Below, in pieces: positions 14,763 to 35,546 of a DNA stretch of 64,000 bases. Numbering within the stretch: position 1 is the first letter of the stretch; every line of letters begins with the position of its first letter. The translations under genes and the position numbers were made by a program. The DNA comes from a plasmid: sequence record NZ_CP137560.1; one strand, given 5' to 3'. Below the pieces are notes generated by a model. That model ran no database searches, had not been told where the DNA came from, and was given only the letters and a program-made list of their open reading frames with translations.

Positions 14763-14822
14763 AGAACAAATCCATGCCTATTTATTAGGACAACTTAATG
14801 TTTCACTAATAAACGAATAGAA

Positions 14823-15629: not shown

Positions 15630-15761
15630 TCGGAGCATATTCTATATCTTTTGATATGTTATCCATGCTATTAAACTATGCAAACGAGTATATGCTTTTT
15701 ACAACAAGTAGAATTGATTATCAGCGTTTTGCATTACCTTTGCACTCAAAAGGAAATACGC

Positions 15762-19371: not shown

Positions 19372-19373
19372 GA

Positions 19374-19784
19374 CTACTTGACACTTAAATTTTTCAAGAT
19401 ACGGTTGGCTTCTTCTGAAACCTGCGCCTTTGACGCAATCGCATTTCTGCGAATCCATGTCAAGAGTTCCGCTTTCTCGAAATACACCATCTTGCCATTC
19501 GGCTTGTAATAAGGAATGGTCTGCTCATGGGTCATCTTGTAGAGCGAACTTTTTGTCACTCCCATAAATCGGGCAGCTTCTTCCAAAGTCAGCACTTCCT
19601 TACCTGCTGACAGGGTATTTTCAAGCACTTCTACTCGCTTGGCGAGTTTTAGGTTCTCCAGCATGAGCGCTTGAACATCTGGAGTTACACTTTGATTGGT
19701 TCGTGATTCCATAATCTGTTGATGTTTTAATTTGACTATTTCATCATGACCATTGTTTGTGATTGCAAGTTGAAAGTGGTGCAA
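19374..19784 (-). CDS. Excisionase-family HTH DNA-binding protein (xis-like)
   Basis: LTLEEAARFMGVTKSSLYKMTHEQTIPYYKPNGKMVYFEKAELLTWI. The same motif recurs in 33626-33958 and 50904-51221. The true start is probably internal (MESRTNQS). Confidence 0.75.
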   Translation of the reverse strand: MHHFQLAITNNGHDEIVKLKHQQIMESRTNQSVTPDVQALMLENLKLAKRVEVLENTLSAGKEVLTLEEAARFMGVTKSSLYKMTHEQTIPYYKPNGKMVYFEKAELLTWIRRNAIASKAQVSEEANRILKNLSVK

Positions 19785-20063
19785 AGGTATGTAAGATATT
19801 TCTCATTCTGTTAGAAATGCTTGGTCAATGACGAAATCTTAAGCTATATTATAATAATGAAGTTATTTCATACTCTAAATCATACTTGGATGAAATAAAG
19901 TGAGGACAAAATCAAACTTAGAAACGATAGTAAGAATACAAGAGAAACGCTGTTTTTGGAACTTGGTTGTCAAATCCTCAAAACAGCCATAAAATGCAGA
20001 AATGGTGCTTGGGCTGTAATTTTATAGTTGCAAATACGCAATTATCTCTTTTTATTTGGAAAT

Positions 20064-20085
20064 TTTTGTTGCACGTTTGTTACGT
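20064..20085 (+). repeat. 21-bp direct repeat, copy 2, near the IME-A right end
   Basis: Identical to 2349-2370. Confidence 0.6.
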
Positions 20086-20141
20086 GGAGGTGTTTTGTGA
20101 AATAGCAACACTGATAATCAGCGAGTTACATAGCGAAATAA

Positions 20142-20986
20142 TCCCACGAAGTAAAGCATTGCACCATAGAAATGAACCGTCAAATACCTAGTAAGCCACT
20201 TAGCCCAGGCTCCCTCCCATTTTGGAAGGACAGAAAAAGCCCATTGGATAGGGCCAAAGATAGTGAGCATACCCAACAATATCTGCTGACAGAAGATGGT
20301 ACTCCACCATCCTACACGATAAATGACGAGAGCAAAGAACATCACTATCTTATCCAGTCCTATGATAAGACCTGCAAAAACGGAACGGTCAGCGGCCTCC
20401 TGCACCATGGCTTCTCCTTCTTGCTTACTCTCGATGTCTTCCACTTGCATGGAGGCATCTTGAACGATTTCACTTAGAATCAATTCCTTGGCAACCTCTT
20501 GCTTGGGTGCTATTTTTCGATAGAGTGAGTCACGTTTCTGTACCAGCGGCATCAACTCATTATATTTCTCACTCACCTGTATGGCCTCCGCCTCATATAG
20601 GTCATGTGTATAGGAACCTATGCAGTTAGGTATAAATGCGAGGGCATCCAAGATGCTTCCATTATTGTTGGTAGAAGAAGGATACCAGAAGCACATAACC
20701 AGTGCGATACCCATCACTTTCATGATTTTGATCACGTCAATGGGTTCCCCTTTGACAAGCATCTTGTAACACATGCCACCAGCCACAAGAATGGAGAAAA
20801 GTGCTCCAAGAGCCATGCACATCTGCAAAATCCACCAATTATCCCAAGCGGGTCTAACCATCGGAAATGAAAGGATAGTAAAGTGATGTAATATCGCTGA
20901 TTTACAGTCTATTAGGAATGAAAGCCGGTTTTGGATTGGTTCGTTATTCTTTCCTAAATTAGCGGATTGTTTACCCACTTTTGTCT
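20142..20986 (-). pseudogene. traJ: traJ middle fragment between IME-A and IME-B
   Basis: Multi-TM protein ...MVRPAWDNWWILQMCMALGALFSILVAGG...HFYGAMLYFVG. It stops prematurely at 20118 inside IME-A DNA and is in frame with the 34493-34778 N-part once IME-B is removed in silico. Confidence 0.6.
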
Positions 20987-21001
20987 CGTTTTTGTCCCTC
21001 G
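20987..21001 (+). repeat. 15-bp perfect direct repeat CGTTTTTGTCCCTCG, left flank of IME-B
   Basis: Identical 15-mer at 34478-34492. GCTGATTTACAG motifs also occur on both outer flanks (20889 and 34530). Confidence 0.7.
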
Positions 21002-21085
21002 TTGTATTATCTTTGTATCGCAAGTTAAATGCTTGATAATCAGTGATAAAAGAATATATTAACATCAGAAAAGAAAGGAAATAAA

Positions 21086-22267
21086 ATGGGACGAAAGAAG
21101 AAGGAAATCCGTTTGAAGGAGCCAGTGCGCATCCGAGAAAAGAAGATAGCTGGTGGCAACATCAGCCTCTATCTTGACATTTACCAAAAGGGATTGAGAA
21201 AGAAAGAGACGTTGAAACTCTATCTTGTGCCAGAAATCAACGCTGCTACCAAGTTGCAAAACGCCAATACAAGAAAGTTGGCAGAGCAAATCAAGGCGCA
21301 GCGCATTCTTGACATCCAGAGAGAGGGTCTTGTGGATTGGGACAAGGTGAAGAAGTCACGCATGACACTTACCAAGTGGATGGATGACTTTGTGAAGTAC
21401 AATGCCGAGTTGTCTGAGTCTTCCATGAAGACAAAGCGCAACACTCATGCTCGCATTGACCAATACCTATTACATATAGGCAAGCCAGAGTTTCTGTTGA
21501 AAGACGTGGACAAGGAGTTTTGCAAAGGCTTCATTACTTTTTTGAAGACTTGCACCTACAATGATGGAAAGAAACAACTCAGCACCACCACTTGCCGTAT
21601 GTTCGTCAACTATTTCGGCTCGTCATTGGCAAAGGCAGTAAGGGACGGACTGATTGAGCAAAATCCATTCTTGCTGTTGGAGGCAAAGGAGAAGCCACAG
21701 AAGCGAGTGGCTGAGCGTGAGTTTCTGACGATAGAGGAAATAAAGAAGGTGATGAACACACCATGCCGTTATGAACTGGTGAAGAAAGCCTTTCTATTCT
21801 CCTGTTTCACCGGTCTGCGATATAGCGACATGAAAGCCTTGAACTGGAGTGAAATCCACAAGGCTGCTGACGGCAAGACAGAATACATTGACCATATCCA
21901 AGTCAAGACCAAGGATAGAGTAACCATCCCCTTGTCGGAAGAAACAAAGAAGTGGATGCCTAAAAGAGAAGAAGGCATAGACAACATCTTCCACAACTTG
22001 ACAATCACATCTACAACTGTAGAAGTGGTGCTGAAAGAATGGATGGAGGCAGCAGGAATAACCAAGCATATAACCTACCATTGCTCACGACATACAGCGG
22101 CTACGATGCTCCTGACTCTTGGTGCAAGTATCTATGTAGTAAGCAAGATACTTGGACACAAGAGCATCAAGATGACGGAGATTTACGCGAAGATAGTTGA
22201 CAAGAAGAAGTTGGAAACCGTGAACCTCGTGAACGGAATGTTTGACCAAATACCAGTAATACAATGA
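21086..22267 (+). CDS. Tyrosine integrase, first of a tandem pair
   Basis: 393 aa, MGRKKKEIRLKEPVRIREKKIAGGNISLYLDIY..., C-terminal HCSRHTAAT..LGHKSIKMTEIYAK. Confidence 0.9.
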   Translation: MGRKKKEIRLKEPVRIREKKIAGGNISLYLDIYQKGLRKKETLKLYLVPEINAATKLQNANTRKLAEQIKAQRILDIQREGLVDWDKVKKSRMTLTKWMDDFVKYNAELSESSMKTKRNTHARIDQYLLHIGKPEFLLKDVDKEFCKGFITFLKTCTYNDGKKQLSTTTCRMFVNYFGSSLAKAVRDGLIEQNPFLLLEAKEKPQKRVAEREFLTIEEIKKVMNTPCRYELVKKAFLFSCFTGLRYSDMKALNWSEIHKAADGKTEYIDHIQVKTKDRVTIPLSEETKKWMPKREEGIDNIFHNLTITSTTVEVVLKEWMEAAGITKHITYHCSRHTAATMLLTLGASIYVVSKILGHKSIKMTEIYAKIVDKKKLETVNLVNGMFDQIPVIQ

Positions 22268-23424
22268 AGATAGAAATCAAGGAACGTAAGCTGACGGAAG
22301 GCAAAAGAGCCTTATATCTGGAATACTACGAGACTGGCTTCCGCAAGAGAGAAAACCTGCACCTCTATCTCTTGCCCGATGATGCCGTTGGTGCTGCAAA
22401 GCACAATCGGCTTACATACAACAAGGCTATGGAGATACGAGCAGAGCGCATCCTCACCCCTCCTGTATTGGAGAAAGAGAATGCCAAAAGCGAAGAACAA
22501 GGCAACGGCTTGACTTGGCTGCAATGGTGCGATGACTATATCAAATGGTCTGTTGATTGTGGCAACTGCAAGAAGATGATAGGTCATAAGAATGTTGTCC
22601 GTAAGCGTATAGCCACTTATCTGCGAAGAGTAGATAAGAAAGAAATCCTGCTGAAAGATGTCAGTAAAGATGAAATTTGCGGTCTTTTTGATTATATGCG
22701 CAACAAGTATCGCAACAAACGCCAAATCAAGACCAACGGAGGACGGTTGGCTGATTACACATTACTGTTGTTTGAGGAAACTGTCAAAGCGATATTTAAT
22801 AAGGCTATGCGTGAAGGACTTGTAAAATTCAATCCTGTACACAGTCTAAACAAGTTGGAACGCTTCCATGCTCCTGACAAACACAGAGAGTATCTTACGC
22901 CCGAAGAACTCACACGTTTCCTGGCGGTGGAAGCTGAATGCGAGAATGAACGAACCGTACAACTCGCATTTGGCTTATCATCCATGACAGCCCTTCGCCT
23001 TGGCGATATGCAGCATCTGAGGTGGTGTGATATTAAAATGATAGATGGCGTACCGACAATCAGCATCATACAGCGAAAGACAAAGCGTCCTGCCATTATT
23101 CCGCTCAATGAAATGGCGCAATCGTTGTTGCCACCTCGGGCGGATGACAATCCGGAAAGTCTTGTGTTTCACCTTGTCAAGAAGTCAGACAACGTATCTA
23201 AATACGTAAGAAGACTTAAAGAAAAGGCTGGCATAGAAAAGGATTTGACCTACCATTGCTCACGGCATACGACAGCATCGTTGGCTATCTCAGCAGGAGC
23301 AGACATATCAGCAGTGAAGGATGTTTTGGGACATGGAAGCATCACTTCAACCGAAGTTTATGCAAAAGTGGCTCTTGAAAAGAAGATAGGGGCGGTCAAT
23401 CTGTTTAATGGCGTGTTTGATTGA
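22264..23424 (+). CDS. Tyrosine integrase, second of a tandem pair (ATGA overlap with the first)
   Basis: 386 aa, RALYLEYYETGFRKRENLHLYLLP..., C-terminal HCSRHTTAS..LGHGSITSTEVYAK. Confidence 0.9.
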   Translation: MKIEIKERKLTEGKRALYLEYYETGFRKRENLHLYLLPDDAVGAAKHNRLTYNKAMEIRAERILTPPVLEKENAKSEEQGNGLTWLQWCDDYIKWSVDCGNCKKMIGHKNVVRKRIATYLRRVDKKEILLKDVSKDEICGLFDYMRNKYRNKRQIKTNGGRLADYTLLLFEETVKAIFNKAMREGLVKFNPVHSLNKLERFHAPDKHREYLTPEELTRFLAVEAECENERTVQLAFGLSSMTALRLGDMQHLRWCDIKMIDGVPTISIIQRKTKRPAIIPLNEMAQSLLPPRADDNPESLVFHLVKKSDNVSKYVRRLKEKAGIEKDLTYHCSRHTTASLAISAGADISAVKDVLGHGSITSTEVYAKVALEKKIGAVNLFNGVFD

Positions 23425-23444
23425 GACATACAGCAGGGAGCGAA

Positions 23445-23482
23445 CAATGGGGAAGTCTTACTTCTTCCCTTTTGTTGGTAAA
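23445..23482 (+). terminator. Intrinsic terminator-like hairpin after the integrase pair
   Basis: GGGGAAG-tcttactt-CTTCCC followed by TTTTGTTGG, about 20 bp after the int stop. Confidence 0.5.
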
Positions 23483-23582
23483 TTGCCGTCAGGCTGTATT
23501 CAAAAAACGCTTGTGTTCAAATAAATCTGCAAGACTTATCTGGGCACAGGCTTTTTCATGTTCTATTTAATCTTTGATAAAG

Positions 23583-24227
23583 ATGACAACAGGGGTAATA
23601 TACGCTCGTGTCTCCAGTATTGGTGACAGACAGAGCACGGAAAGACAGATCAAGGACTTGTCGGAGTATGCAAAATATAAGGGTATAGAAGTCCGCAAGG
23701 TCTTTGAGGAACACATTTCTGGCGCAAAGAAGAATGATGAGCGTCCAGTGTTGTGTGAAGCAATGGAATACTGCAAGGCAAACCGCATTGGAATCCTACT
23801 TGTCAGTGAACTGTCAAGATTGGGGCGTAATGCGTTTGAGGTGCTTGCCTCTGTCAAGGAACTCATAGACTGTGGCATTAACCTCTACATACAAAAGGAA
23901 CAGCTTACATTATTGGACGAAGAAGGACATCCGTCCCTCTTTGCCCCGATAATGATAGCCACGCTTTCGACCTGTGCGCAATTGGAACGTGACAATATCT
24001 CATTCCGATTGCAGTCAGGAAGGAAGCAGTATATAGAGAAAGGTGGAAAACTCGGACGCAAGATAGGCTCTGTAAAAACGGAAGAACAGATGAAAGCCGA
24101 ATATAGGGAAGTAATAAGTCTGCTTCGCAAGGGATATTCAATTCGGGATGTGGCGAAGTTGAGTGGTAAAGGGGTAAGTACCGTACAACGAGTTAAGCGA
24201 TTAATAAAAGTACAATCATCGCAATAA
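23583..24227 (+). CDS. Small serine recombinase (resolvase/invertase family)
   Basis: MTTGVIYARVSSIGDRQSTERQ... with the catalytic Ser in the YARVSS context and a C-terminal HTH (GYSIRDVAKLSGKGVSTVQRV). Confidence 0.85.
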   Translation: MTTGVIYARVSSIGDRQSTERQIKDLSEYAKYKGIEVRKVFEEHISGAKKNDERPVLCEAMEYCKANRIGILLVSELSRLGRNAFEVLASVKELIDCGINLYIQKEQLTLLDEEGHPSLFAPIMIATLSTCAQLERDNISFRLQSGRKQYIEKGGKLGRKIGSVKTEEQMKAEYREVISLLRKGYSIRDVAKLSGKGVSTVQRVKRLIKVQSSQ

Positions 24228-24368
24228 TACTATTGATTTTACGTTCTTTTCAAAGAAAGGGGTTGTGCAATAGTGGCTTAAAGGCTAAAAGCACTACCTT
24301 TGTATACAATAATAAGTAACAACACGTTTAAGGTCACAAATTGTGATCTCAAAAATAAAGATAGAAAT

Positions 24369-25325
24369 ATGGCAGATAATATAGAACATCAAGATAAAGG
24401 AGAACTGGTCGCAAATTGTGACCAGTTACAAAATGATGAAGTCGTAGTTACCACTCCTGTAGAAAGTCGAATAATGTCTATTCGTGGAAAGCAGATTATG
24501 ATAGACAGAGACTTGGCTGAACTTTATGGAGTGGAAACTAAAAGATTAAACGAGGCTGTAAAACGTAATATAGAACGTTTCCCTGAGCGTTTCCGTTTTC
24601 AACTGATTAAGGAGGAAATGGCTGAACTGGTCGCAAATTGCGACCGGTTCAATAGTTTGAAGCACTCAACAGTTCGTTCATATGCTTTCACGGAGCAGGG
24701 AGTGGCTATGCTCTCCACTGTTCTTAGAAGTGAAACCGCAATTCGTGTAAGCATACGAATTATGGATGCATTTGTTGCAATGAGACGCTTCATGGTGACA
24801 AATGCAGAAGTTTTCCAACGTCTTTCAACAATGGAGTACCATCAACTGGAAATGCAGCAACATCAGCAAGAAACAGACAAACGCATAGACGAGGTGTTTC
24901 GCAGATTGGACGAGGGCAACGCAAAGCCGAAGCAGGGTGTGTTCTACAATGGGCAAGTTTATGATGCCTATACTTTCGTGTCCGACTTGATTAAGAGTGC
25001 GAAGAAACGTATTGTCCTTATCGACAACTATGTTGACGAGACTGTACTGACATTGCTCGATAAAAGAGATAATAACGTGTCTGCAATCATCTACACTCAG
25101 CAGATAAGCCGTCAGTTACAACTTGACATAGACCGTCATAATGCTCAATATGCACCGATTGATGTTGAAACATTCCGTTTATCACATGACCGCTTCCTTT
25201 GTATAGACGATGATGTGTATCATATAGGAGCATCCATAAAGGACTTGGGCAAAAAGTGGTTTGGCTTCTCAAAGATGGAGATTCTTACACCAGATGAATT
25301 GGTGGAACGAATCAACAAAGAGTAA
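24369..25325 (+). CDS. ORF6N (KilA-N-like) domain protein with an uncharacterised C-terminal domain
   Basis: SIRGKQIMIDRDLAELYGVETKRLNEAVKRNIERFPERFRFQL matches ORF6N. Two copies of the ELVANCD peptide, encoded by a palindromic 21-mer, flank the domain. Confidence 0.7.
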   Translation: MADNIEHQDKGELVANCDQLQNDEVVVTTPVESRIMSIRGKQIMIDRDLAELYGVETKRLNEAVKRNIERFPERFRFQLIKEEMAELVANCDRFNSLKHSTVRSYAFTEQGVAMLSTVLRSETAIRVSIRIMDAFVAMRRFMVTNAEVFQRLSTMEYHQLEMQQHQQETDKRIDEVFRRLDEGNAKPKQGVFYNGQVYDAYTFVSDLIKSAKKRIVLIDNYVDETVLTLLDKRDNNVSAIIYTQQISRQLQLDIDRHNAQYAPIDVETFRLSHDRFLCIDDDVYHIGASIKDLGKKWFGFSKMEILTPDELVERINKE

Positions 25326-25371
25326 TCAATACGCAATATTTCAAGAATATAAACATTAAAAATTACGAATT

Positions 25372-26751
25372 ATGAAAAGCAATTTAGATATACTATTAAT
25401 GAAACGGATAGTATTTTTATTTTCCATTGTTCTCATGCTTTGCTCATGCAAATCATTTGAAGACCACAGCAACGAAAAGGCAGTGGGTACTTACAAGAAT
25501 GGGTATATCCTCAATCTAAACAAGGAGATTGTTGCGACATATAGAAATGGATATGTCTTTAGTGAAAAGGCGTTAGGAACTCCTAATGATTATGGTTTGG
25601 GGTTGGAACAAGACATATATACAACAGGAAAAATAGATACCCTAATGCTGAAATCAAAATATTTTGATTTCAAGCGTAAAGTGTTTGTATATTTGCCTCC
25701 TTTCTATCCTTATTTTGATGCAAATGACTTTGATGTGGTTTATACAACTGATGCACAAACAATGGAACAGTTTTTCATGACTTGTGCATGGCCTTTGTTT
25801 CAGAATAAGTATAAGTGGTTTATTGTTGTTGGTATATGCAGTCCACAGACAGAAACGTATAGTCGCCAAGATGATTTCTTGCCAAACGATAGCGCTACCA
25901 TCAAGAGCTACGATGGACATGGAGGACATTCTGAGAAATTGATGAATTTTGTTAAGTATGAGTTGATACCTTATATCCATAGTCATTATAGGACTACAGA
26001 ACGAAGCTTAGGTGTTGGGCATTCTTTGGGGGCTTCTTTTATGATGCAATGTCTCATGAATGGTAATCCATTTACAGATTATTTTTTTCTTTCTCCAAAT
26101 TTGACTTTTGGCAATGATAAGTTGATGCTTGCCTCGCAATTTTGCAATTATAAATTTGATGTAAACAAGCGATGCTATCTCTTTTTCAGCGATGCGGGAG
26201 AAGAAAGACTGTCTCATGGGTGGAGAGCATGGAAACCTGCACGAGAAATGGTTTATCATTATCTTGACACCCAACAACTACCGAGCAACATTGTATGGAA
26301 AAGGAAATCATATTTGAATTATAACCATCTCACCTCATTCCCTATGGCTCTTCATGATGCCTATCAAGGGTATTTTGATTATATTGACTCTATCAAATCT
26401 TTGGCTCCAAACGATACGACTACGCTTTCAAAACAAGTATATCGTAAGCATATTGAGATTGTGGTAAAAGATGCCAAGCAAGAAGTTTATATCACAGGAA
26501 ACCAAAAGTCCTTAGGTATGTGGAATCCAGGCTTGATTAAGCTAAAACATATTAATGACTCTATCCGCGCCATAGATGTTGATTTGCATTTGCCAGCATT
26601 ATTTAAGTTTACTCTTGGAAGTTGGAAATACGAAGCAGGCTTTGAAAATTCCTATTATGGAGATAATCTTGAAATAAATAATACTGAGCGGAAGAACTAT
26701 CGTTATATATTGACTGAGTGGATGAACATAGAAGATGATGAAAATCAATAA
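25372..26751 (+). CDS. Lipoprotein with an esterase-D/enterochelin-esterase-like alpha/beta hydrolase domain and a C-terminal CBM20-like beta-sandwich
   Basis: Signal peptide plus Cys (LMLCSC). GxSxG nucleophile elbow GHSLGASF. C-terminal VYITGNQKSLGMWNPGLIKLK...LGSWKYEAGF resembles a starch-binding-type CBM. Confidence 0.55.
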   Translation: MKSNLDILLMKRIVFLFSIVLMLCSCKSFEDHSNEKAVGTYKNGYILNLNKEIVATYRNGYVFSEKALGTPNDYGLGLEQDIYTTGKIDTLMLKSKYFDFKRKVFVYLPPFYPYFDANDFDVVYTTDAQTMEQFFMTCAWPLFQNKYKWFIVVGICSPQTETYSRQDDFLPNDSATIKSYDGHGGHSEKLMNFVKYELIPYIHSHYRTTERSLGVGHSLGASFMMQCLMNGNPFTDYFFLSPNLTFGNDKLMLASQFCNYKFDVNKRCYLFFSDAGEERLSHGWRAWKPAREMVYHYLDTQQLPSNIVWKRKSYLNYNHLTSFPMALHDAYQGYFDYIDSIKSLAPNDTTTLSKQVYRKHIEIVVKDAKQEVYITGNQKSLGMWNPGLIKLKHINDSIRAIDVDLHLPALFKFTLGSWKYEAGFENSYYGDNLEINNTERKNYRYILTEWMNIEDDENQ

Positions 26752-26856
26752 TTATTAGTTTACTTCACCTATAGATTTGGTAGAACGAATCAATAGAGGA
26801 TAATACTTACGAAAATTTCAAGAAAAAGAACTTAATACATAAATATAAAGTAAGCA

Positions 26857-28305
26857 ATGAAAAGGATTTGGATTTTTCTGATGGCGATGCTCTGCATCGT
26901 TTCTTTTACAGGTTGTGATAAGACTGAGGAACCTAACGGACCGGTTATTGACTATGACAATCTGTTCGATAGAACTTATTCTATTAACGACGATGGCTGC
27001 TGTGTGCTCGAAAGTTGCGAGCCCACAAGAGCTACAGTTATTGAGGATGAGGTAAAGGGATATGGATGGAAAGTCATTGGCATATATGAAGTTCAGAATG
27101 ACGGCAGGCTTTCACAGAAAGATTATCGCGAAACAGTTTGTGGTGGAGGATATGAAGATTACTGGTTTGAGTCAGACAGTCGGCTTGTCGTTTTCCACCA
27201 TAGTGACATCCCAGGCAAATTCTATAATAAGACAACGTGGCGCTACGATGCTACAAAGGGTTTCATCATGCGTGGCACAGAAAGCGAAAGTTTGCAAAAC
27301 CGCTATATGCAAGTGCTGGCTTTGACCACTCTCCAAGGAAAGAAATTCTATATGTACACCATGCAAAATATTGGTGTCAAATTCGACGAACACGGTAATC
27401 AGAAACCTTTTTATTGCATGGTTGTCTATCAACGCATGACCGACAATGAACTTGCCAAAATGAAGAAAGCATACGATTATGATGCAAACTTTGATTTTAC
27501 CGGTGCCGTTCCTGACGACTGCAAGTTCCGTGTAAGTGCAAGATACTACAATCCCGACGATTTTGAAGAAGGTACCAACGGAAGTGTCATCGTCGCTTTT
27601 GGAAATGTAGAATTCTCACTGACCGACCATCTCGGCACGGCAATGCTTCCAAACCCAGCATTGGAATATTTCGACTCCATCGTTTGGAGAGCCAACGACA
27701 GAATTGTTCCAGACAGATATGTCATACACCGCAACAATCAGAGCAAGGCGCAGACTGTCCTGACATGGACTACCCGTTTCTTCTATACGAACCCAAACCT
27801 GACCACATACTTTGAGGGTTACAAGAAAGGTCGCATCGTCTATACATACACGATGCACCACGACATCTACTTCGACAAATTCTTGTGCTTCGATTGGGGA
27901 AAGTTTTCGATGAGCAAGCCAAGAGAGTTTACTGCTACATGTTTGCTTGACAAAAGCCGGAGTTTCACCGTTTACGAACCAAGGACATACAACAATGATA
28001 TGAACAAGGTGTATGCCGAACTGCGCTACAATTCCGAAGAAAAAGGCAAGGGCAACGATATTGCCATCCTGGAAAAGGAAATCAGTGAACTGACGGAACT
28101 TATGATTAACCATTATGGCAAGGGAACCGAAGTGGGTAAGCAGGTAGAGCATTACCGCACCTTATTCAAGGCTCTTCCTGAAAAAGCGCATATTATTACA
28201 TACTGGGCAACTGCTGATACAAGAATTGCACTTGTTTTCAATCGCGACGATGCTGACTCCAAGAATGATTACTATTACGTTCATGCAGAACCAGTTCAAC
28301 AATAA
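26857..28305 (+). CDS. Lipoprotein of unknown function
   Basis: MKRIWIFLMAMLCIVSFTGC lipobox. 482 aa with no recognisable motif. Confidence 0.5.
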   Translation: MKRIWIFLMAMLCIVSFTGCDKTEEPNGPVIDYDNLFDRTYSINDDGCCVLESCEPTRATVIEDEVKGYGWKVIGIYEVQNDGRLSQKDYRETVCGGGYEDYWFESDSRLVVFHHSDIPGKFYNKTTWRYDATKGFIMRGTESESLQNRYMQVLALTTLQGKKFYMYTMQNIGVKFDEHGNQKPFYCMVVYQRMTDNELAKMKKAYDYDANFDFTGAVPDDCKFRVSARYYNPDDFEEGTNGSVIVAFGNVEFSLTDHLGTAMLPNPALEYFDSIVWRANDRIVPDRYVIHRNNQSKAQTVLTWTTRFFYTNPNLTTYFEGYKKGRIVYTYTMHHDIYFDKFLCFDWGKFSMSKPREFTATCLLDKSRSFTVYEPRTYNNDMNKVYAELRYNSEEKGKGNDIAILEKEISELTELMINHYGKGTEVGKQVEHYRTLFKALPEKAHIITYWATADTRIALVFNRDDADSKNDYYYVHAEPVQQ

Positions 28306-28418
28306 CAAAGCAATCCATTCACAACTGGAGGTTTAATCCGCAAAATAGTTGATGGAACGAATCGCTATAGTATAGTGGTGAATTACATTATTAATACGGA
28401 ACTATAAATCAAAATAAT

Positions 28419-29585
28419 ATGAGAATAAAAAAAATATTGCCTTTTATACTATTGGTATTCTTATTTATTTCATGTGAAAAAGAAGACTTTGAAATAGAAA
28501 CCAATAATCAAAGAACAGTTTTTATGTATCTCCCATGGTCAACAAATCTGACAAGTTATTTTTATAATAACATTTCTGATATGGAAGAAGCTATACAAGA
28601 AAAAGGATTAGAGAATGAAAGAATTATAGTGTTTTTATCTACAAGCCCTTCTGAATCGGAGATGTTTGAAATAACTTTAAATAACGGTTCGTGTAAAAGG
28701 ACTATCTTAAAAGAATATGTAAATCCTTCTTTTACCACAGAAGCTGGTTTGACAGAGATTCTCGGAGATATGAAAACATTTGCTCCTGCTGAAAGTTATT
28801 CAATGATTATCGGTTGTCACGGCATGGGCTGGCTTCCTGTTGTACAAAGCCGTAGCAAAGCGAAGGAAGATTTTGTTTATCATTGGGATTTTGAGAATGT
28901 TCCTATGACACGTTTTTTTGGCGGATTAACAGCAGAATACCAAACAAACATAAGCACTCTTGCTCAAAGCTTATCTAATAACGGATTGTCAATGGAGTAT
29001 ATTCTATTTGATGATTGCTATATGTCATCGTTGGAAGTTGCCTATGAGTTACGCCATGTAACCAACTATATGATTGCCTGTCCAACAGAAGTGATGGTCT
29101 TTGGTATGCCATATTCCACAATAGGCAAATATCTCTTATCAGAAAAACCAGATTACAAAGCTATATGTGAGTCATTTTATCAGTTTTATTCTAACTATCA
29201 ATATCCTTATGGAACGTTGGCTGTAACAGACTGCTCTTACTTGGATGAGTTGGCAGAACTAATGAAATATATTCACTCTAATTATTCTTTTGATAGTACA
29301 CAAGCTATAAATATTCAACGTATGGATGGCTACTCCCCTGTGATATTCTATGATTTCGGAGATTATGTACAGACTTTATGTGGTACAGACACAGAAATAT
29401 ATAATAATTTTAAAACACTATTGGAGAAAGTTATCCCTTACAAAACTCATACCAAAGAATTCTACACGGCATCAAGAGGTCCTATTACAGTTGAAAGATA
29501 TTCAGGAATAACAACCTCTGAACCAAGTACAAATAGCAAGATGGTAGATTACCCAAAAACATCATGGTGCATTGACACACATTAA
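28419..29585 (+). CDS. Lipoprotein, clostripain-like (peptidase C11) cysteine peptidase
   Basis: Signal peptide plus FISC. A His-Gly dyad context (IIGCHGMGW) and the catalytic-Cys context (ILFDDCYMSS) are typical of C11 proteins. Confidence 0.5.
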   Translation: MRIKKILPFILLVFLFISCEKEDFEIETNNQRTVFMYLPWSTNLTSYFYNNISDMEEAIQEKGLENERIIVFLSTSPSESEMFEITLNNGSCKRTILKEYVNPSFTTEAGLTEILGDMKTFAPAESYSMIIGCHGMGWLPVVQSRSKAKEDFVYHWDFENVPMTRFFGGLTAEYQTNISTLAQSLSNNGLSMEYILFDDCYMSSLEVAYELRHVTNYMIACPTEVMVFGMPYSTIGKYLLSEKPDYKAICESFYQFYSNYQYPYGTLAVTDCSYLDELAELMKYIHSNYSFDSTQAINIQRMDGYSPVIFYDFGDYVQTLCGTDTEIYNNFKTLLEKVIPYKTHTKEFYTASRGPITVERYSGITTSEPSTNSKMVDYPKTSWCIDTH

Positions 29586-30156
29586 ATTATCACTCTGAAC
29601 CAAGTTGTGATATAGTCCAAAATCTCCAACGAAGTAACTATCCGTGGGGGGCTTGACCCTTGCACATATAAAAAGCAAAAAGAAAGCGTTATCGGAGTAT
29701 TACACAAAAAACAGCTGGCTATTACATAATGAAACAACATACTTGACTGATTGGTACGCTTCTCCTACCATGCGGACAAATCCCGGTAACAAAATGACAA
29801 AGCGGACAATGTTCTTAACATGCCAACTTGTAAATGGGATGAATGATTTTCGTTTTTCGCAAGTTGATTTTATAAAATTGCTGCCAACAGTTCGTACTTT
29901 CGGAAAAAGATGTTATATTTGCAAATGAAAGAGTTATTTGACAGCATAGCAACGCAAAACGCTGAAATTCGCACAGTTGCCAAATCGTTACCTCTATTTC
30001 TCAAATAATTCGCTAATAGTTTATTTCTCAATCGGTTAAGTCAAACCGATAAAAATCTAAAATAAACTGTGTCAGGCTATAAAAGTTATAGTTAGACACG
30101 GTTTATTTACATTTCTATCCTTTCCTTTGCAGAGTATAATTCTTCCCATCCTCAGC

Positions 30157-30777
30157 TTACTTGTCTATGTATGATGCAACAAAATATACAATCGAAATGA
30201 CCGTATAAAGGAAACACGGCAAGAATATCCAAAGCAAAGTCTTTACCCAACCGTTTGACAACCACACACCTTCATTCCTTGACATCATATTAGACATATC
30301 ATAGAAATGGCGAGTGAGGATTTCTTTGTTTTTCTTTCGGTGGTCTTCAAGAAGTTTGGACTCGTTTTCAATGAGTTTCTTCCTGTTGTTGATTGCCTGT
30401 TCCATATCGGCATCATCAATCTTTGCTTTGACAGTTATGTCTTTTACTTTGCCGATGTAGGCTTCAATAGCTTTGGTGACAGTATTCGCTTTATCTGAGG
30501 CTTCACTCAATTTGTCTTTTGCTTCATGCATGGAAGCAGTAGCCATTTCAACGCCACTTTTTGCCAAAGTCAAACTATTGCCAGCATCCTTGTAGGCTTG
30601 AAGTTGTTGGTCAAACTTGTCCGAGGTCTTGTCCGTTTCGATATTCTTGTCTATCGTGTTCTCGAAAGATCCGAAATCCATATCTGAGATTTTACTTTTA
30701 CCTATTGGCATAATATCAGTGCTGTTGGTTGAACATTCGGTTATCTGCCATACCCTTGCTTCTTGCGAGGTCTGCAC
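30157..30777 (-). CDS. mobC: MobC-like mobilization protein with a C-terminal TM
   Basis: 206 aa, coiled-coil then a C-terminal hydrophobic segment. Positional and sequence homolog at 47170-47772. Confidence 0.6.
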   Translation of the reverse strand: MQTSQEARVWQITECSTNSTDIMPIGKSKISDMDFGSFENTIDKNIETDKTSDKFDQQLQAYKDAGNSLTLAKSGVEMATASMHEAKDKLSEASDKANTVTKAIEAYIGKVKDITVKAKIDDADMEQAINNRKKLIENESKLLEDHRKKNKEILTRHFYDMSNMMSRNEGVWLSNGWVKTLLWIFLPCFLYTVISIVYFVASYIDK

Positions 30778-31964
30778 AGTCGATTAGCCATCATAGCGCA
30801 ACGATACGCCCAAGACAGTTCATCCTCGTCCTTGTCACGTCCCCAACCTGAGGTAGCACCACCTCCGCCACCGCCAGACTGGGCGGCAATGGTTGTGGCA
30901 GCATCAATGTATTCAGCAAAGAGAAGAATGGCGGTCTTCTGCACATCACCTATCTTGGCAAATACATTGTCGGCATCCAAAGCTATATTCTTATCGATGA
31001 TATCCAGACAATTCTGAGGAATATCAACAGGGTAATGATGAAACTCGTCCGTATAGAAGTCGAAGTGACGTATCTTTGGAGAGTTGTCCGCAGTAGGCAT
31101 GGGTTTGGGTACAGTCATAATCTTTGGCTGTTGGGTATTCTTTGTTGGAGTTGAAACTGGTTTCTCCAATTCTTGATGATGCAGTTTTGCCCAAGTACCT
31201 TCAATCTTTGAGGGCATCAGACAACGACCTTTGCCAAGTTCCGAGGACTTATAAATGGAGTTACCACGCTTGATGGCATAGCCACGCATTTGTCCTTTAT
31301 TGTCAGATTGTAGTTTGACATCATATCCCATTTGCGTGAGGCATTTTGTGTATAGTCCCCAATCAAAGTACGACATCTTAGCCAAAACGGAAAGGCAATC
31401 ATTGGTTATCGCTTCCTTATTTTGGCGGCTCACCTCTTGTGCATCTTTCCATCCACGCTGTTGCCCAACCTTGGCGGCAGCAGCCATCGCTCGCTCATAG
31501 ATATAATGGGCATCATTCACGTTGCCCCTTATGTCTATGCGGTTCGCATCAATGTGAAGGTGCATAATGCCACTCTTGCTGTCACGATGAAGCGCAACAA
31601 CATATTGGCTGTCTTTGAGGTTGGTTGTCTTTGCACTCTTGCGCTTCGACTTGGCTGAAAGGTCAACAGCATCAAACTCACGGATAAAGTCATCCGCCAA
31701 CCTCTGCCAGTCCTCCATTGTCCAACCTTGCGTTTCCTCCGAGGTTGGGGAAACCTCGATACGTATCATGTTCCGTTTGAGCGGATGATAACGGTTCAAC
31801 TTGTCCTCAAACTTCTTCTGCAAGGCAAGCATTCTCGCCCACATTGCCGTTGGGGAAATATCATCGGGCAAGAGATTGGTCTTTACAATCTCTGCCTTGT
31901 CCTTATCTACTGAGTAACGTATGGCATTTGCGCCATGACTTATTACCTTTGCTTTTGCTATCAT
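30741..31964 (-). CDS. mobB: Relaxase/mobilization nuclease (Bacteroides MobB type) with a poly-Gly/RDKDEDE tail
   Basis: MIAKAKVISHGANAIRYSVDKDKAE... matches the relaxase/mobilisation nuclease N-terminus. HxH context (IMHLHIDANRID). C-terminal SGGGGGGATSGWGRDKDEDELSWAYRCAMMANR. Confidence 0.85.
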   Translation of the reverse strand: MIAKAKVISHGANAIRYSVDKDKAEIVKTNLLPDDISPTAMWARMLALQKKFEDKLNRYHPLKRNMIRIEVSPTSEETQGWTMEDWQRLADDFIREFDAVDLSAKSKRKSAKTTNLKDSQYVVALHRDSKSGIMHLHIDANRIDIRGNVNDAHYIYERAMAAAAKVGQQRGWKDAQEVSRQNKEAITNDCLSVLAKMSYFDWGLYTKCLTQMGYDVKLQSDNKGQMRGYAIKRGNSIYKSSELGKGRCLMPSKIEGTWAKLHHQELEKPVSTPTKNTQQPKIMTVPKPMPTADNSPKIRHFDFYTDEFHHYPVDIPQNCLDIIDKNIALDADNVFAKIGDVQKTAILLFAEYIDAATTIAAQSGGGGGGATSGWGRDKDEDELSWAYRCAMMANRLCRPRKKQGYGR

Positions 31965-31978
31965 ATATGTCGTATGTT

Positions 31979-32380
31979 CTATTGTGTTAAGTATTTCTCT
32001 ATCTCAATCATGCGGTTCAAGATAACCTCTGCGCTTGTTCTCCATCGTTTCATGAAGATTTCGCTGCGGAGAATGTTCTCACGTTCCGTAAGCGGACGAC
32101 CTTTGAGGAAACCGAACAATTTCTGTATATCGCCCCTGGCATCCGATAGGCTGTTCAAAGCCTCCATTTCTTTGTCTGTCAAGCGTTGTTTGGGGTATTT
32201 GCCCTCCAACCGCTTGCGTGCGTATGCGCTTGTGGTTAGTCCGCAAAGAGCAGCATATTCCGCTATCTCCTTATGGAGTTGCGGTGTCAGCCTTACTATC
32301 AGGCGGCTCGTGTATTTCGGAGCCTCCTTATCTATAATTCTCTTATTCATACCAAGTATTGCTTCTATAAAAGTGTGCAA
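31979..32380 (-). CDS. mobA: MobA/MobC-type relaxosome accessory protein (RHH)
   Basis: 133 aa, ...LTPQLHKEIAEYAALCGLTTSAYARKRL..., typical of a mobilization protein upstream of a relaxase. Homolog at 49014-49424. Confidence 0.65.
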   Translation of the reverse strand: MHTFIEAILGMNKRIIDKEAPKYTSRLIVRLTPQLHKEIAEYAALCGLTTSAYARKRLEGKYPKQRLTDKEMEALNSLSDARGDIQKLFGFLKGRPLTERENILRSEIFMKRWRTSAEVILNRMIEIEKYLTQ

Positions 32381-32425
32381 CCCAATGCGAGCTTGCGAGC
32401 GTTCAAGAAGTCCATTGGCATACGG

Positions 32426-32444
32426 ACAAACGAAGTGCGTTTGT
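32426..32444. other. Candidate oriT hairpin ACAAACG-aagtg-CGTTTGT upstream of mobA (IME-B)
   Basis: Perfect 7-bp inverted repeat. The GCGAGCTTGCGAGC motif at 32388-32400 is also conserved upstream of the IME-C mobA (49471-49483). Confidence 0.4.
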
Positions 32445-32551
32445 ATGACATTGGTATTTCTTGCATAGCACTGCCATCAGAGTTTACGCACAAGCACGCT
32501 ACGCACTGCGATTGCACCAGTTCACAGACTTGTTGTATAACGGTTCTCAAA

Positions 32552-33202
32552 TTACCCAAGCAACAGCAATTGTGGGGCATCCTCCGCTTCCATCTGTTCT
32601 TTGAAGAATTGCCTTCTGGCTTCTGCCTCCAGTTCCATGTCAGAGACGCTTGGCGGTGGAACATCTTCCTCCTCTCCATTATTGCCATTTCCTGAAGTTA
32701 GGGAAGAAAAGGAACTGTTGGCAAGTTGTGTTGGAGAAGTACCGCCATTTTTGATGGGTGGATCCTCCTTGTTAGGGAATGCGGTTGTGGAAGTCATAGT
32801 ATTAGACTTGCCGGAACAGTCTCTTTGGTTGATGGGAACATAGTGAGGATTGACATATTTCTTGCCGTCAACAATCCATGCAGAAATGCAGAGCAATGTG
32901 TGAACACTTCCTCGTCTTGTCTGTACAGAAGAAAGGATGCCCAATTTGTTCATGTGGTCAAGCATCTTGGAGACGGTTTTTCGGTCACACTTCCATAGTT
33001 TGGATAGAGCCACCTCTGACATGTTCACCTCCCATAATGCGGTTGTGGATTCCCCAACCTCATTTGATGTTTCAATCTGTCGTGTCACAATCTGAATGAG
33101 TTGATAAAGGCATGAAAGGCGATTGATGCCAGCCGTGCCACCCATCAGATAGTTTACTTGTTCATTACTCAGGATAATGCTGTTGAAAATATTACTGTTC
33201 AT
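32552..33202 (-). CDS. IME HTH-domain protein (paralog family)
   Basis: ALSKLWKCDRKTVSKMLDHMNKLGIL HTH with an acidic tail. Homolog of 18410-19066. Confidence 0.5.
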   Translation of the reverse strand: MNSNIFNSIILSNEQVNYLMGGTAGINRLSCLYQLIQIVTRQIETSNEVGESTTALWEVNMSEVALSKLWKCDRKTVSKMLDHMNKLGILSSVQTRRGSVHTLLCISAWIVDGKKYVNPHYVPINQRDCSGKSNTMTSTTAFPNKEDPPIKNGGTSPTQLANSSFSSLTSGNGNNGEEEDVPPPSVSDMELEAEARRQFFKEQMEAEDAPQLLLLG

Positions 33203-33273
33203 CGTTGTTTATTTTTGTTGTGTGAATTTTTTCTTGCTGTTATGCGGAAAACTCTCTGCCGTCAAAAGAGAAG

Positions 33274-33621
33274 CTATCGCCTCATGCCGAAGCCTCTCTC
33301 TGGCATATAATACTCCTTGTCGTATGCGATATGGTCAAGCACACGTTGCAGTCGGTCAAGTTGAAGACTGTCAAGCACTTGTATGGCATTGATGGTAATT
33401 TTCTGTGATGCAATTCTTCGATGCTCACAGTTTCTTTCAGACATGGTTCCGTCACCGTCAGCATAGACCGAATGAAGATAGGTATTGACTGCTTCCGTCT
33501 GTTCCTTGCTTGGGTAAGCAGCAGGAAAGCGGTCGGAAATGTAGTCTACCATATTGCTGACCGCATTAGCCAACAGAGGGTCACGTTTTTGCAGACTGTT
33601 TACAAGTTCATCTTTCGTCAT
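33274..33621 (-). CDS. Small conserved IME protein of unknown function
   Basis: 115 aa, positional homolog of 19063-19371 and 50584-50901. Confidence 0.45.
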   Translation of the reverse strand: MTKDELVNSLQKRDPLLANAVSNMVDYISDRFPAAYPSKEQTEAVNTYLHSVYADGDGTMSERNCEHRRIASQKITINAIQVLDSLQLDRLQRVLDHIAYDKEYYMPERGFGMRR

Positions 33622-33625
33622 GATG

Positions 33626-33958
33626 CTATGGTCTATTGTTCATTTCATTCAGACGGTTTGCAGCCTCCAGTCTTATCTCCTCCTCCGACATGGCTCTTGC
33701 TCCTCGTACCCAGTCAAGCAAGGCTTTCTTCTCAAAGAAGATGAGCTTGCCAGCAGGCTTGAAGTACGGCAACTGGTTAAGATGCGTCATCTTGTAGAGC
33801 GTGCTCTTGGCAATGCCGAGAAAGGCGGAAGCCTCTTCAAGGTTCAACACTTCCTTTGTCATATAGCAAAGGTTCTCCAACTTGTTCACTCTCGACTGAA
33901 GCTCCACTATCTTGCGCTCATGGTCGAGGTTCATCTTTAATGCGTTTTTTTCTGTCAT
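33626..33958 (-). CDS. Excisionase-family HTH protein (xis-like)
   Basis: LNLEEASAFLGIAKSTLYKMTHLNQLPYFKPAGKLIFFEKKALLDWV. Confidence 0.75.
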   Translation of the reverse strand: MTEKNALKMNLDHERKIVELQSRVNKLENLCYMTKEVLNLEEASAFLGIAKSTLYKMTHLNQLPYFKPAGKLIFFEKKALLDWVRGARAMSEEEIRLEAANRLNEMNNRP

Positions 33959-34477
33959 AAATCTGATATTTTGTTTATTTTGTTATCGATTTCGGCTGCA
34001 AAGGTATATTGTTGCCAATGATATTCAAGCAGCCGTTATGGTTTATTAAAAGTGCTGATTTTCAATTCTTTGGTTCTATTTTACCATGCTGCAATGTGGT
34101 AGATTGGTCGGACACTCACTTGAAATTCAGCATCTTCAAATGTCTATCGTTCAAACATTCACAAAACCAAGGATTGGACAATAAGGGTGGCAAATCTTTG
34201 GTTCTATTGCCAGTTCTCGTTTTTGAAAATGTCCAACAGAGTGAAAAACAAAATTTAACACCCGATATTTGCAAGTCATACTGTTTGAGGTCAAAATCGC
34301 TTGCAATAACCACATTTGGGGTACAATGGTAGGAAAATGAGTTGTGAATGAGAGAAATAGGGATTTCCCCTCGTTTTTCAAGGGACAAATTTGTACCTTT
34401 GCAAACGAAACAGAGGTATTCCACAAGGGATATTTCGGGCAAAGTGTTCTTGACTTTATTTTTCCGTGGTTTTGTCC

Positions 34478-34492
34478 CGTTTTTGTCCCTCG
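34478..34492 (+). repeat. 15-bp direct repeat CGTTTTTGTCCCTCG, right flank of IME-B
   Basis: Identical to 20987-21001. Confidence 0.7.
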
Positions 34493-34778
34493 CTGATTTT
34501 GTATCACGAGACAAAAAATTATAAATAGCTGATTTACAGCGATAAAAGTCGTGTTTTGAAGAATTGGTAACGGCAACCACCAGTAACCACCAAAACGGAC
34601 CTTGGGAACCAATGAAATCAGCGTTACAAAGGAACTCGTTGGTCTGAAATACAACGTTGTCTATATCTTCCTCGAATAAATCCACGCCTATGGTTTTTGA
34701 AAGGTCCGAGATATAATCGCCCATTCCCGTCATAGTGCTACCTACAGAAGTATCTAAGAATAATGATGTAAATGCCAT
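34493..34778 (-). pseudogene. traJ: N-terminal 95 codons of a tra protein (most likely traJ N-part), separated from its continuation by IME-B
   Basis: Removing 21002-34492 in silico joins this ORF in frame to the traJ middle fragment (...AIYNFLSRDTKSARDKN|ETKVGKQS...MVRPAWDNWW...). Its start lies 27 bp after the upstream gene stop. Confidence 0.5.
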
Positions 34779-34805
34779 AATGATATTTTTCTATTTTTTA
34801 AAGTT

Positions 34806-35546
34806 CTAGGGTTTTTCCTTAGCAAAGCCATCCACCGCCATGGCCGCTTGCCAGCGTTTATAAGCATCCTTGGCGATGACAACATTGGAAGAAAGTCGCT
34901 CCGGGGTGACGGCTTGCTCTGATATTTTTTTACTCTTTTTCAAGGAATTCCAATAAAGCAATTGTTTGACGAGAGTCAGATTTCTTTTGACCACATCCTG
35001 ATAGATGGCCAGGTACTCCTTCTTCCTCTTACCCAAGTCCTGATAGGACTCATGGGTAATCTTGATGGCGGTCTCAAAGCAATTGTAGAGATTTCTCCAA
35101 GATTGGTAGTCATTGGGGGAACCACCATAAGATACAATATTGTTGATGTTCTTGTTAAAGATCTCCATCTTACCATCGAGTTTGCTTTTCTCCAGTACCC
35201 ATGAAAGGTCACTGGCACTTGACCTTGAAACAATGTTGATAGCTTCCACCTTCGCTCGCTTGGTGTAATCAGAATCCACTTTCTCTGCCAAGTCTTGCTC
35301 CAGGGTTGTGTAGCCCATGACCTCCGTGCGGTAGAGCAATTTGTTTCTTGCATTGGCATCTTTTTGGTATTTCTTATGAAATGTGTTATAATACCAGGCA
35401 GGGGATAGGCTTCCAGCACCTGTCTCCATGGTAGTGAACTGGTTCATGATGTCACGTTCATGGACATAGGTCACTTCCTGAGCACCGGCATGTAGGCTCA
35501 TTGCGCACAGCAAACCTAAAATCAACTGTTTGAATTTACGTTTCAT
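34806..35546 (-). CDS. Secreted protein of unknown function within the tra operon
   Basis: 246 aa with signal peptide MKRKFKQLILGLLCAMSLHAGAQ. The C-terminal ...AYKRWQAAMAVDG resembles ...DSYTRWLAAGDEAH of the adjacent paralog. Confidence 0.55.
   Translation of the reverse strand: MKRKFKQLILGLLCAMSLHAGAQEVTYVHERDIMNQFTTMETGAGSLSPAWYYNTFHKKYQKDANARNKLLYRTEVMGYTTLEQDLAEKVDSDYTKRAKVEAINIVSRSSASDLSWVLEKSKLDGKMEIFNKNINNIVSYGGSPNDYQSWRNLYNCFETAIKITHESYQDLGKRKKEYLAIYQDVVKRNLTLVKQLLYWNSLKKSKKISEQAVTPERLSSNVVIAKDAYKRWQAAMAVDGFAKEKP

Follow-up and report, generated by a model that had tools for sequence, protein, structure and literature searches.

Results

A traJ-like conjugation gene is split by two mobile elements

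The DNA analysed here is a window of 64,000 nucleotides from a plasmid (sequence record NZ_CP137560.1), the minus strand of which bears a Bacteroidetes-type conjugation operon of a Prevotellaceae integrative and conjugative element (ICE). Within this operon, between the gene of a DUF5045 secreted protein and traK, lies a traJ-like gene that is interrupted by the subject of this study, IME-B, and further downstream by a second element, IME-A; together they split the gene in three (Table 1). IME-B is an integrative mobilizable element (IME). It has at one end two tandem tyrosine recombinase genes, int1 and int2, the products of which both combine an arm-binding, a SAM-like and a catalytic domain, followed by the gene of a small serine recombinase, whereas the genes of a relaxase and of an excisionase-like protein (xis) lie toward the other end, and cargo genes that vary among relatives occupy the middle. 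A domain scan found no type IV secretion system (T4SS) domain among the open reading frames (ORFs) of IME-B. The ORFs at 26857-28305, 31935-32468, 32552-33202 and 33274-33621 had no Pfam match, and a divergent primase is possible among them.

IME-B is bounded by a 7-bp core

Four contigs (L010-L013) carry the same ICE as the window with hardly a base of difference; IME-A is in place there but the IME-B site is vacant, and the DNA at this empty site reads GGTCCGTTTTGGTGGATTTTGCAGATG. A comparison of the window with these contigs showed divergence at two positions, 34586 and 20839. The heptamer CCACCAA (TTGGTGG in the traJ orientation) was the sole sequence common to both junctions and the empty site, and thus IME-B has a length of 13,755 bp. 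The insertion point corresponds to codons 63-64 (Trp-Trp) of the traJ-like gene.

Removal of IME-B and IME-A in silico restored a traJ-like protein of 389 aa (64 + 226 + 99 codons), and a protein database queried with an in-silico restored protein returned thousands of homologs. The full-length homologs, of 384-394 aa, covered the whole query and began with MAFTSL..., so that the MAFTSLFLDTSVG... N-terminus that the original prediction had assigned to traJ is present in them. All intact homologs in the alignment read ...NADFIGSQGPFWW/ILQMCMALGALF... (the slash marks the junction of the two fragments). In the 12 aligned homologs GPFWW/ILQMC was uninterrupted, with no inserted residues, and no residues matching LLVVAVTNSS..., the tail of the N-terminal fragment in the window, or ...MVRPAWDN, the head of the middle fragment, were detected in the intact homologs of the alignment. 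Furthermore, a 301-aa protein cluster from the four empty-site contigs (P0015) is identical to codons 1-64 of the window joined directly to the middle fragment.

These boundaries differ from those of the original prediction, whose literal observations were nevertheless all accurate. There are exactly two copies each of the 15-mer CGTTTTTGTCCCTCG (20987-21001 and 34478-34492; 0.02 expected) and of the 12-mer GCTGATTTACAG (20896-20907 and 34528-34539; 0.02 expected) in the window; the ATG at 34778 sits 27 bp past the stop codon of the DUF5045 gene (34806-35546); and deletion of 21002-34492 (13,491 bp, a multiple of 3) joins the ORF starting at this ATG to the ORF ending at 20118 without a stop. 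The 15-bp direct repeat had been read as the att site or target duplication that flanks IME-B, the deletion of which restores TraJ. Although the repeat is perfect and non-random and the deletion is in frame and stop-free, both copies are internal, at distances of 149 bp (left) and 95 bp (right) from the cores, and every relative has the block with the 15-mer conserved within the element, irrespective of the target on its flank. The product of the deletion is 477 aa long, as opposed to 384-394 aa in the homologs and 389 aa in the true product. The 88 surplus codons (264 bp, the amount by which IME-B exceeds the earlier deletion) are IME-B end DNA that stays open, and they are missing from the isogenic empty sites and from all intact homologs. 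We therefore regard it as highly improbable that the 15-mer forms the boundary. Even less can be said for the 12-mer as the crossover site, with deletion of 20908-34539, a reading that we consider practically untenable. This deletion is in frame, too, and the two copies lie outside the 15-mer, in a manner analogous to IME-A; however, they are not on the outer flanks of the element, as had been thought, but inside it, 58 bp (left) and 48 bp (right) from the cores, and the 12-mer varies among relatives, whereas the junction is constant at TGGTGG. The approximately 41 extra codons left by the 12-mer model are absent from the homologs and the empty sites, which rule out the 12-mer as the true boundary, for which it had been a candidate by analogy with the internal long repeat of IME-A. 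The location of IME-B inside the traJ ORF, on which the homolog alignment and the empty sites agree, and the tripartite structure that it creates with IME-A both stood up, but the other possibility entertained, that IME-B fuses a tiny upstream gene to traJ, did not: the homologs show one interrupted ORF, neither an intergenic insertion nor a separate small gene, and homologs that start at MVRPAWDNWW and follow a separate upstream gene were not found.

One further contig (L006:9886-10000) has an otherwise empty traJ site with an 86-bp deletion, the right edge of which is within the att core (GATCTG/GTGGATT), and its gene is frameshifted. This could be the scar of an aberrant excision or an assembly error.

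The attachment site coincides with a conserved protein motif

The number of core copies at the two junctions varies among relatives. The window has TGGTGG-TTAC-TGGTGG on the side of the N-terminal fragment and a single TGGTGG on the other side; the arrangement is reversed in L002-L009 and others, and a single copy is found on the N side in L020, L032 and others. This pattern is consistent with an attP that reads ...GGGATAATTGGTGGTTACTGGTGGTTGCC... and has two cores, TGGTGGTTAC and TGGTGGTTGC, at a spacing of 10 bp, either of which could recombine with the single attB core, and the attP junction is accordingly deduced to read ...CCCGCTTGGGATAATTGGTGGTTACTGGTGGTTGCCGTTACC.... The preferred attB, GGnCCnTTyTGGTGG (GGTCCGTTTTGGTGGATT), is the coding sequence of the conserved GPFWW motif, which accounts for the repeated use of one codon in diverged ICEs and for the existence of look-alike secondary sites; the non-traJ flanks of IME-B relatives end with ...CCnTTyTGGTGG. 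The idea that the end of the IME generally supplies a start (MVRPAWDN-WW) for the downstream part of traJ was discarded, since in relatives with two core copies at the junction on that side a shift of 10 nt breaks the frame.

The IME-B family recurs at the same codon and moves between ICE lineages

The integrase-integrase-resolvase module was found directly upstream of a truncated traJ in seven metagenome contigs, with different cargo. A probe without relation to the repeats, a 28-mer located just within the xis end, was used to scan metagenome contigs and yielded 15 loci, and ten of the 15 xis-end junctions abut traJ N fragments, of diverse alleles, at the same codon. Scanning the GTDB species representatives with the putative arm motif (see below) gave 44 loci, in Prevotella, Segatella, Leyella, Bacteroides, Parabacteroides, Alistipes and Muribaculaceae, with about 39 interpretable junctions. 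The traJ codon is occupied at 18 of these, and the remainder lie beside ...CCnTTyTGGTGG. Of 54 junctions in Bacteroidales of the gut and rumen, roughly half were at the same traJ codon. In the isolate Leyella lascolaii khD1, both element ends are in one contig, 15.4 kb apart, within traJ (NZ_LT556036.1, about 377.1-392.9 kb). The integrase half of IME-B is 98-99.8% identical to that of L003, while the adjoining ICE DNA is about 78.5% identical, indicating that the element moves between ICE lineages. The cargo of the family includes peptidases, RHS toxins, restriction-modification systems and radical-SAM loci.

Five loci that carry the IME (L031, L032, L033, L038 and L073) come from metagenome-assembled genomes labelled Clostridia, Oscillibacter, Erysipelotrichaceae or Anaerovoracaceae; all but L073 are flanked by a Bacteroidota-type traJ, and these labels most likely reflect mis-binned mobile-element contigs. 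At two loci (L024 and L028), an IME-B-type xis end is joined, some 140 nt from the end of the locus, to chromosomal-looking DNA, whose final 24 nt (CCGCTTGGCTGGGATAACTGGTGG) resemble an integrase-end terminus and may be the remnant att site of an earlier element.

Repeats inside both ends of IME-B resemble arm-type sites

The 15-mer extends to a 26-bp repeat (20979-21004 and 34470-34495) of 92% identity, and each copy contains two units phased by 11 bp. Further partial copies of the motif were found at 34215-34225, 34370-34378 and 34381-34389. In the whole window, five of the six matches to TTTTGTCYC fall in the two ends of IME-B; the TTTTGTCYC repeats lie 95-163 bp inside the ends and the 12-mer motif 48-69 bp inside. 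The block GAGGGACAAAAACGGGACAAAACCACGG... was invariant in 15 of 15 loci from the 28-mer scan, whereas the neighbouring spacer varies, and in an alignment of 28 sequences conservation peaked at 0.96 over the repeat, compared with 0.75 in the adjacent spacer and approximately 0.85 in the xis gene. Sequence features of arm sites are found here, namely a PF17293 domain in both integrases, repeats in both arms and conservation among relatives, and the TTTTGTCYC repeats are most likely arm-type sites for Int1 and Int2 rather than crossover sites. The integrase-end repeats are closely followed by TATCTTTG (21009-21016), a match to the Bacteroides -7 promoter consensus TAnnTTTG that precedes int1 by about 70 bp, so that the arm sites may have a further role in the regulation of int.

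Stop triplets are scarce at the xis end

The non-coding region at the xis end (34120-34586) contains fewer stop triplets than expected on the two strands (24 versus 42 and 26 versus 44). On the tra strand, all the stops in the first 430 nt or so of the xis end are in one frame. Each of the other two stays open over more than 420 nt, and it is into exactly these two that traJ leads, into one at one-copy junctions and into the other at two-copy junctions, as is also the case in most relatives. Mononucleotide shuffling gave values of 0.003 for the open frame of the retained 257 nt and 5e-5 for that of the 468-nt tail. A hidden protein gene was considered and rejected, as the region lacks 3-periodicity, its translation does not look protein-like and no Pfam match was obtained. 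Among 28 relatives, no codon periodicity was seen in this region (0.081/0.097/0.097 at the three positions, versus 0.10/0.097/0.141 for the xis gene), so that the open frames are no ordinary gene. A scan of 33600-34900 for sigma-70 promoters and terminators returned fewer sites than shuffled sequences did, with a tool that does not cover Bacteroidetes promoters.

The host operon and the other two elements

Two genes, for a protein of 893 aa and then one of 271 aa, lie between traG and the DUF5045 gene, and in homologous loci TraM (PF12508) and DUF4138 genes come after traK. The restored traJ-like protein matched the TraJ model TIGR03782 over model positions 31-306 of 323 with 27.7 bits (E = 1.2e-6; cutoff, 289.95). 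All 12 aligned homologs matched this model weakly (best E = 1e-8), and all 12 also matched the CD3337/EF1877 mobilome membrane family, while Pfam gave no match with the traJ fragment or the intact homologs. The restored protein is thus probably a distant VirB6/TraJ homolog. Two TraJ-like homologs, P0011 (517 aa) and P0034 (454 aa), have an internal tandem duplication. The repeat unit of P0034, about 65 aa long, ends with ...LYFVGFYVLLLFDIV beside the IME-A attachment site, and the longer insert of P0011 has the same motif inside; the duplications could be genuine or an assembly artefact.

IME-A interrupts the same gene at a core of 8 bp, and the junction in the protein is ...GAMLYFVG/FYV.... 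Its internal direct repeat is composed of 11-bp-phased TTTGTTRC units. The region 5239-15629 of IME-A encodes a type I restriction-modification system, with HsdR (5239-7635), HsdM (7650-9161) and a nuclease of the YhcG/DUF1016 type. Beside the gene of a 268-aa tyrosine recombinase (14823-15629), hsdS genes, four in number and complete or partial, are spread over both strands (10787-14762), an arrangement typical of specificity loci that vary in phase by shuffling. The IME-A site (...LYFVG/Y...) is taken up in the same ICE lineage by a different element, which has an HTH_17 gene next to the junction (L014:8001-9173, proteins P0013 and P0017), so the second site in traJ is also recurrent. In L014, three successive tyrosine recombinase genes cut into traG.

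A third duo-integrase element, IME-C (11,760 bp, 42404-54163), splits the traE-like (DUF4134) gene, the intact homolog of which at L006:1953-2342 reads ...NNEEQDVKKSIMMIVGAC.... IME-C points the opposite way from IME-A and IME-B, and each of its ends contains phased GAAA(A)CAA repeats of its own. One ICE thus carries three IMEs in three T4SS-gene sites, two of them in traJ and one in the traE-like gene.

Table 1. Features of IME-B, of the interrupted genes and of their surroundings in the window
Feature	Coordinates	Strand	Basis
att core, right copy CCACCAA (WW codons)	34587-34593		identity block, mismatches on either side
att core, left copy CCACCAA	20832-20838		identity block, mismatches on either side
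IME-B proper (13,755 bp with one core copy)	20839-34586		divergence from isogenic empty sites; gene content
Second TGGTGG copy (CCACCA), 10 bp inside right core; candidate alternative attP crossover point	34577-34582		one or two copies, complementary, in relatives
traJ-like N-terminal fragment, codons 1-64 (MAFTS...GSQGPFWW); last 7 nt are the right core copy	34587-34778	-	homolog alignment; DNA identical to L010-L013 up to 34587; P0015
traJ-like middle fragment, codons 65-290 (ILQMCMALGALF...GAML)	20154-20831	-	homolog alignment
traJ-like C-terminal fragment, codons 291-389 + stop	1917-2216	-	homolog alignment
Int1, tyrosine recombinase with arm-binding domain (PF17293 + PF13102 + PF00589)	21086-22267	+	Pfam
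Int2, second tyrosine recombinase, same three domains, 35% identical to Int1	22264-23424	+	Pfam
Small serine recombinase, 214 aa (resolvase + HTH_7); kept beside Int2 in relatives	23583-24227	+	Pfam
Cargo: ORF6N protein, esterase/CBM20, unknown 482-aa protein, C11 (clostripain) peptidase; varies among relatives	24369-29585	+	Pfam
Relaxase (MobA/VirD2 nuclease domain, PF03432; MbpB-like)	30741-31964	-	Pfam, NCBIfam
Excisionase-like HTH_17 protein (TIGR01764, 32.1 bits, cutoff 28.8)	33626-33958	-	profile match
Putative integrase-end arm repeat: two 11-bp-phased TTTTGTCYC units; includes 15-mer 20987-21001	20979-21001	+	repeat and motif scans
Putative xis-end arm repeat: two 11-bp-phased TTTTGTCCC units; includes 15-mer 34478-34492	34470-34492	+	repeat and motif scans; invariant in 15/15 relatives
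Inverted copy of putative arm motif, TTTTGTCTCGT	34506-34516	-	motif scan
12-mer GCTGATTTACAG, integrase-end copy, internal; conserved part TGTAAATCA on tra strand	20896-20907	+	motif scan, relatives
12-mer GCTGATTTACAG, xis-end copy, internal	34528-34539	+	motif scan, relatives
DUF4133 (traF-like) gene	42008-42307	-	domain match
TraG/VirB4 ATPase, 970 aa	39067-41979	-	domain match
DUF5045 secreted-protein gene, upstream neighbour of traJ-like gene in ICE tra operon	34806-35546	-	domain match
TraK (TIGR03781, 262.9 bits, cutoff 152), next gene after traJ-like	1273-1890	-	NCBIfam
IME-A (17,937 bp with one core copy)	2217-20153		homolog alignment, empty sites
IME-A core ACGAAGTA, 8 bp	2209-2216 and 20146-20153		homolog alignment, empty sites
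IME-A tandem integrases	2454-3620 and 3645-4799
IME-A 23-bp perfect direct repeat, internal	2346-2368 and 20062-20084
IME-C integrases	51361-52629 and 52658-53830	-
IME-C RHS-repeat cargo	44640-45434
traE-like (DUF4134) gene, N part	54469-54164	-	split at 7-bp core TCAAGAA
traE-like (DUF4134) gene, C part	42403-42320	-	split at 7-bp core TCAAGAA

Discussion

The results argue strongly that IME-B is an IME inserted site-specifically at a 7-bp core within a traJ-like gene, and that the repeats inside its ends are most likely arm-type sites; we hold this reading with high confidence. It describes a widespread IME family of gut and rumen Bacteroidales with a preferred attachment site written in the GPFWW codons of a VirB6-like gene. 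The correction has a more general bearing, since arm sites, too, can form perfect direct repeats close to the ends of an integrated element and be taken for its boundary, a trap in annotation from sequence only. Several points weigh against the reading. A circular attP junction was not recovered, the exact attP 30-mer having no match in viral contigs, so that excision is deduced solely from occupied and empty isogenic sites; L024 and L028 were ruled out as circular attP forms, as they have no integrase or xis gene upstream and their flank encodes chromosomal-looking proteins. The traJ label depends on synteny and a weak full-length match that is far under the cutoff. The 44 loci of the genome scan, having been found with the arm motif as the probe, are unusable as evidence of its conservation. 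Finally, the repeats could be operators of the integrase promoter or part of oriT.

The last point can be extended to the view that the internal repeats are not arm sites at all but operators (for example, for autoregulation of the divergent integrase promoter), part of oriT or the relaxosome, or what is left of an earlier nested element that had the 15-mer as its boundary. The left copy is 85 bp upstream of the int1 start and is followed by the -7 motif described above, and the xis-end non-coding region is unusually conserved and poor in stop triplets and thus has further functions. However, the motif occurs in both arms in the same orientation and with 11-bp phasing, with extra inverted copies, as in the classical layout of arm sites; both integrases have arm-binding domains; the layout is repeated with different motifs in three different elements of the window; and neither a gene nor a separate conserved boundary supports a nested element. 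We consider such an alternative role unlikely, and retain the assignment of the repeats as arm-type sites.

The following course of events can be envisaged. Strand exchange in the TTGGTGG/CCACCAA core placed IME-B in the traJ-like gene. Int1 and Int2 would bind TTTTGTCYC through their PF17293 domains, and perhaps the TGTAAATCA motif too, and the repeats would serve the assembly of integrative and excisive complexes. For excision, Int1, Int2 and the Xis-like protein would assemble attL with attR, and precise excision would recreate the traJ-like ORF; until then, the disrupted traJ would disable the ICE. The open frames of the xis end might, speculatively, keep translation going and so avoid polarity on read-through into xis and mob.

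One could go further and propose that T4SS genes (traJ at two sites and the traE-like gene at one) are dedicated sites at which a guild of duo-integrase IMEs docks and switches conjugation reversibly. Upon tra induction, transcription, and even translation, would read into the xis/mob ends of IME-A and IME-B, where two frames are stop-free for more than 140 codons; polarity would be prevented, excision driven and traJ rebuilt, and the IME would leave through the repaired pore. This extended scenario is a conjecture that we think is probably wrong, at least in its full form. The opposite view, in which the insertions are a graveyard in a dead ICE, the tra genes are neutral landing pads and IME excision is uncoupled from ICE transfer, seems to us unlikely as well, though less so. 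Three tra-gene disruptions in one ICE speak for it, as does the orientation of IME-C, which does not allow a uniform transcriptional coupling, and about half of the IME-B family insertions are outside traJ. On the other hand, all three in-silico deletions give intact ORFs and no other lesions are present, the same ICE lineage is found with and without IME-B, and attB coincides with a conserved protein motif, as expected of a dedicated site. The question raised for Prevotellaceae is whether IMEs are harmless hitchhikers that excise when the ICE is induced, or parasites that disable it.

Comparison with known systems

The elements most similar in layout, as compared by description, are MTnPi1, MTnPi2 and MTnPi3 of Prevotella intermedia, mobilizable transposons or IMEs with a tyrosine integrase duo (PMC4755523; reviewed in PMC5704250). 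Like IME-B, they reside in a Prevotellaceae host, measure 12-18 kb and carry at one end a tandem pair of tyrosine recombinase genes that are only distantly related, as well as genes for a relaxase and an excisionase and cargo that varies; a short att core in which mismatches are tolerated and multiple insertion sites are further common traits. The att sites differ, however. That of MTnPi is an 11-bp TTAC/TTGC-N5-AA with an N5 that differs between attL and attR, while IME-B has a 7-bp TTGGTGG identical on both sides and does not conform to the MTnPi pattern; the TTAC that recalls it is present only as the spacer between the two deduced attP cores. MTnPi elements target genes for hypothetical proteins or AT-rich sites and have a primase-family gene, whereas IME-B prefers a T4SS-gene site, had no primase detectable by Pfam and has a conserved small serine recombinase in addition. 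MTnPi1-c, which lacks the second integrase, failed to excise, but the authors suggested substitutions in the remaining integrase (PMC4755523), and in view of this alternative cause the case hints only weakly at a need for both integrases.

NBU elements of Bacteroides encode just one integrase and insert at the 3' ends of tRNA genes, and CTnDOT is itself conjugative; to our knowledge, neither a tandem integrase pair nor targeting of tra genes has been described for them. They nevertheless have in common with IME-B the N-terminal arm-binding domain of their tyrosine integrases (IntN1 of NBU1/NBU2 and IntDOT of CTnDOT), short cores in larger att sites with repeated arm-type sites, the use of secondary sites and mobilization by a co-resident conjugative element (PMC5704250).

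Within the collection of papers that was searched, no direct precedent for IMEs in tra genes of Bacteroidota was found; MTnBf8 was ruled out as one, being an NBU-like composite and another kind of element. The closest parallel is provided by the serine-integrase IMEs in traG of streptococcal ICEs. In Firmicutes ICEs of the Tn5252 superfamily, IMEs reside in conserved conjugation genes, such as IME_Sco1050_traG_site1/site2 and Tn6104 in traG (VirD4), with up to two IMEs at two sites of one gene and 1-3 IMEs per ICE, and it has been hypothesized that ICE induction triggers IME excision, restoring the gene (PMC5704250). IME-B resembles these elements in its site-specific insertion into a conjugation gene of an ICE, which is disrupted and can be restored by excision; independent ICEs are occupied at the same internal site, and the ORF is regained when the element is excised in silico. 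The Firmicutes elements use serine integrases in Gram-positive hosts, whereas IME-B is a Bacteroidota element with a tyrosine duo and putative arm sites, and its sole serine recombinase, of 214 aa, is of the resolvase type, unlike a serine integrase. The targets differ as well, being coupling protein, Maff2 or SNF2 genes in the Tn5252 superfamily and VirB6-like traJ and traE-like (DUF4134) genes here. As this search yielded no description of such an arrangement for Bacteroidota, IME-B is best placed, on present sequence comparisons, as a probable tyrosine-integrase variant of the IMEs in ICE conjugation genes known from Firmicutes, with an anatomy in which the att core is the 7-bp sequence and not the conspicuous 15-mer.

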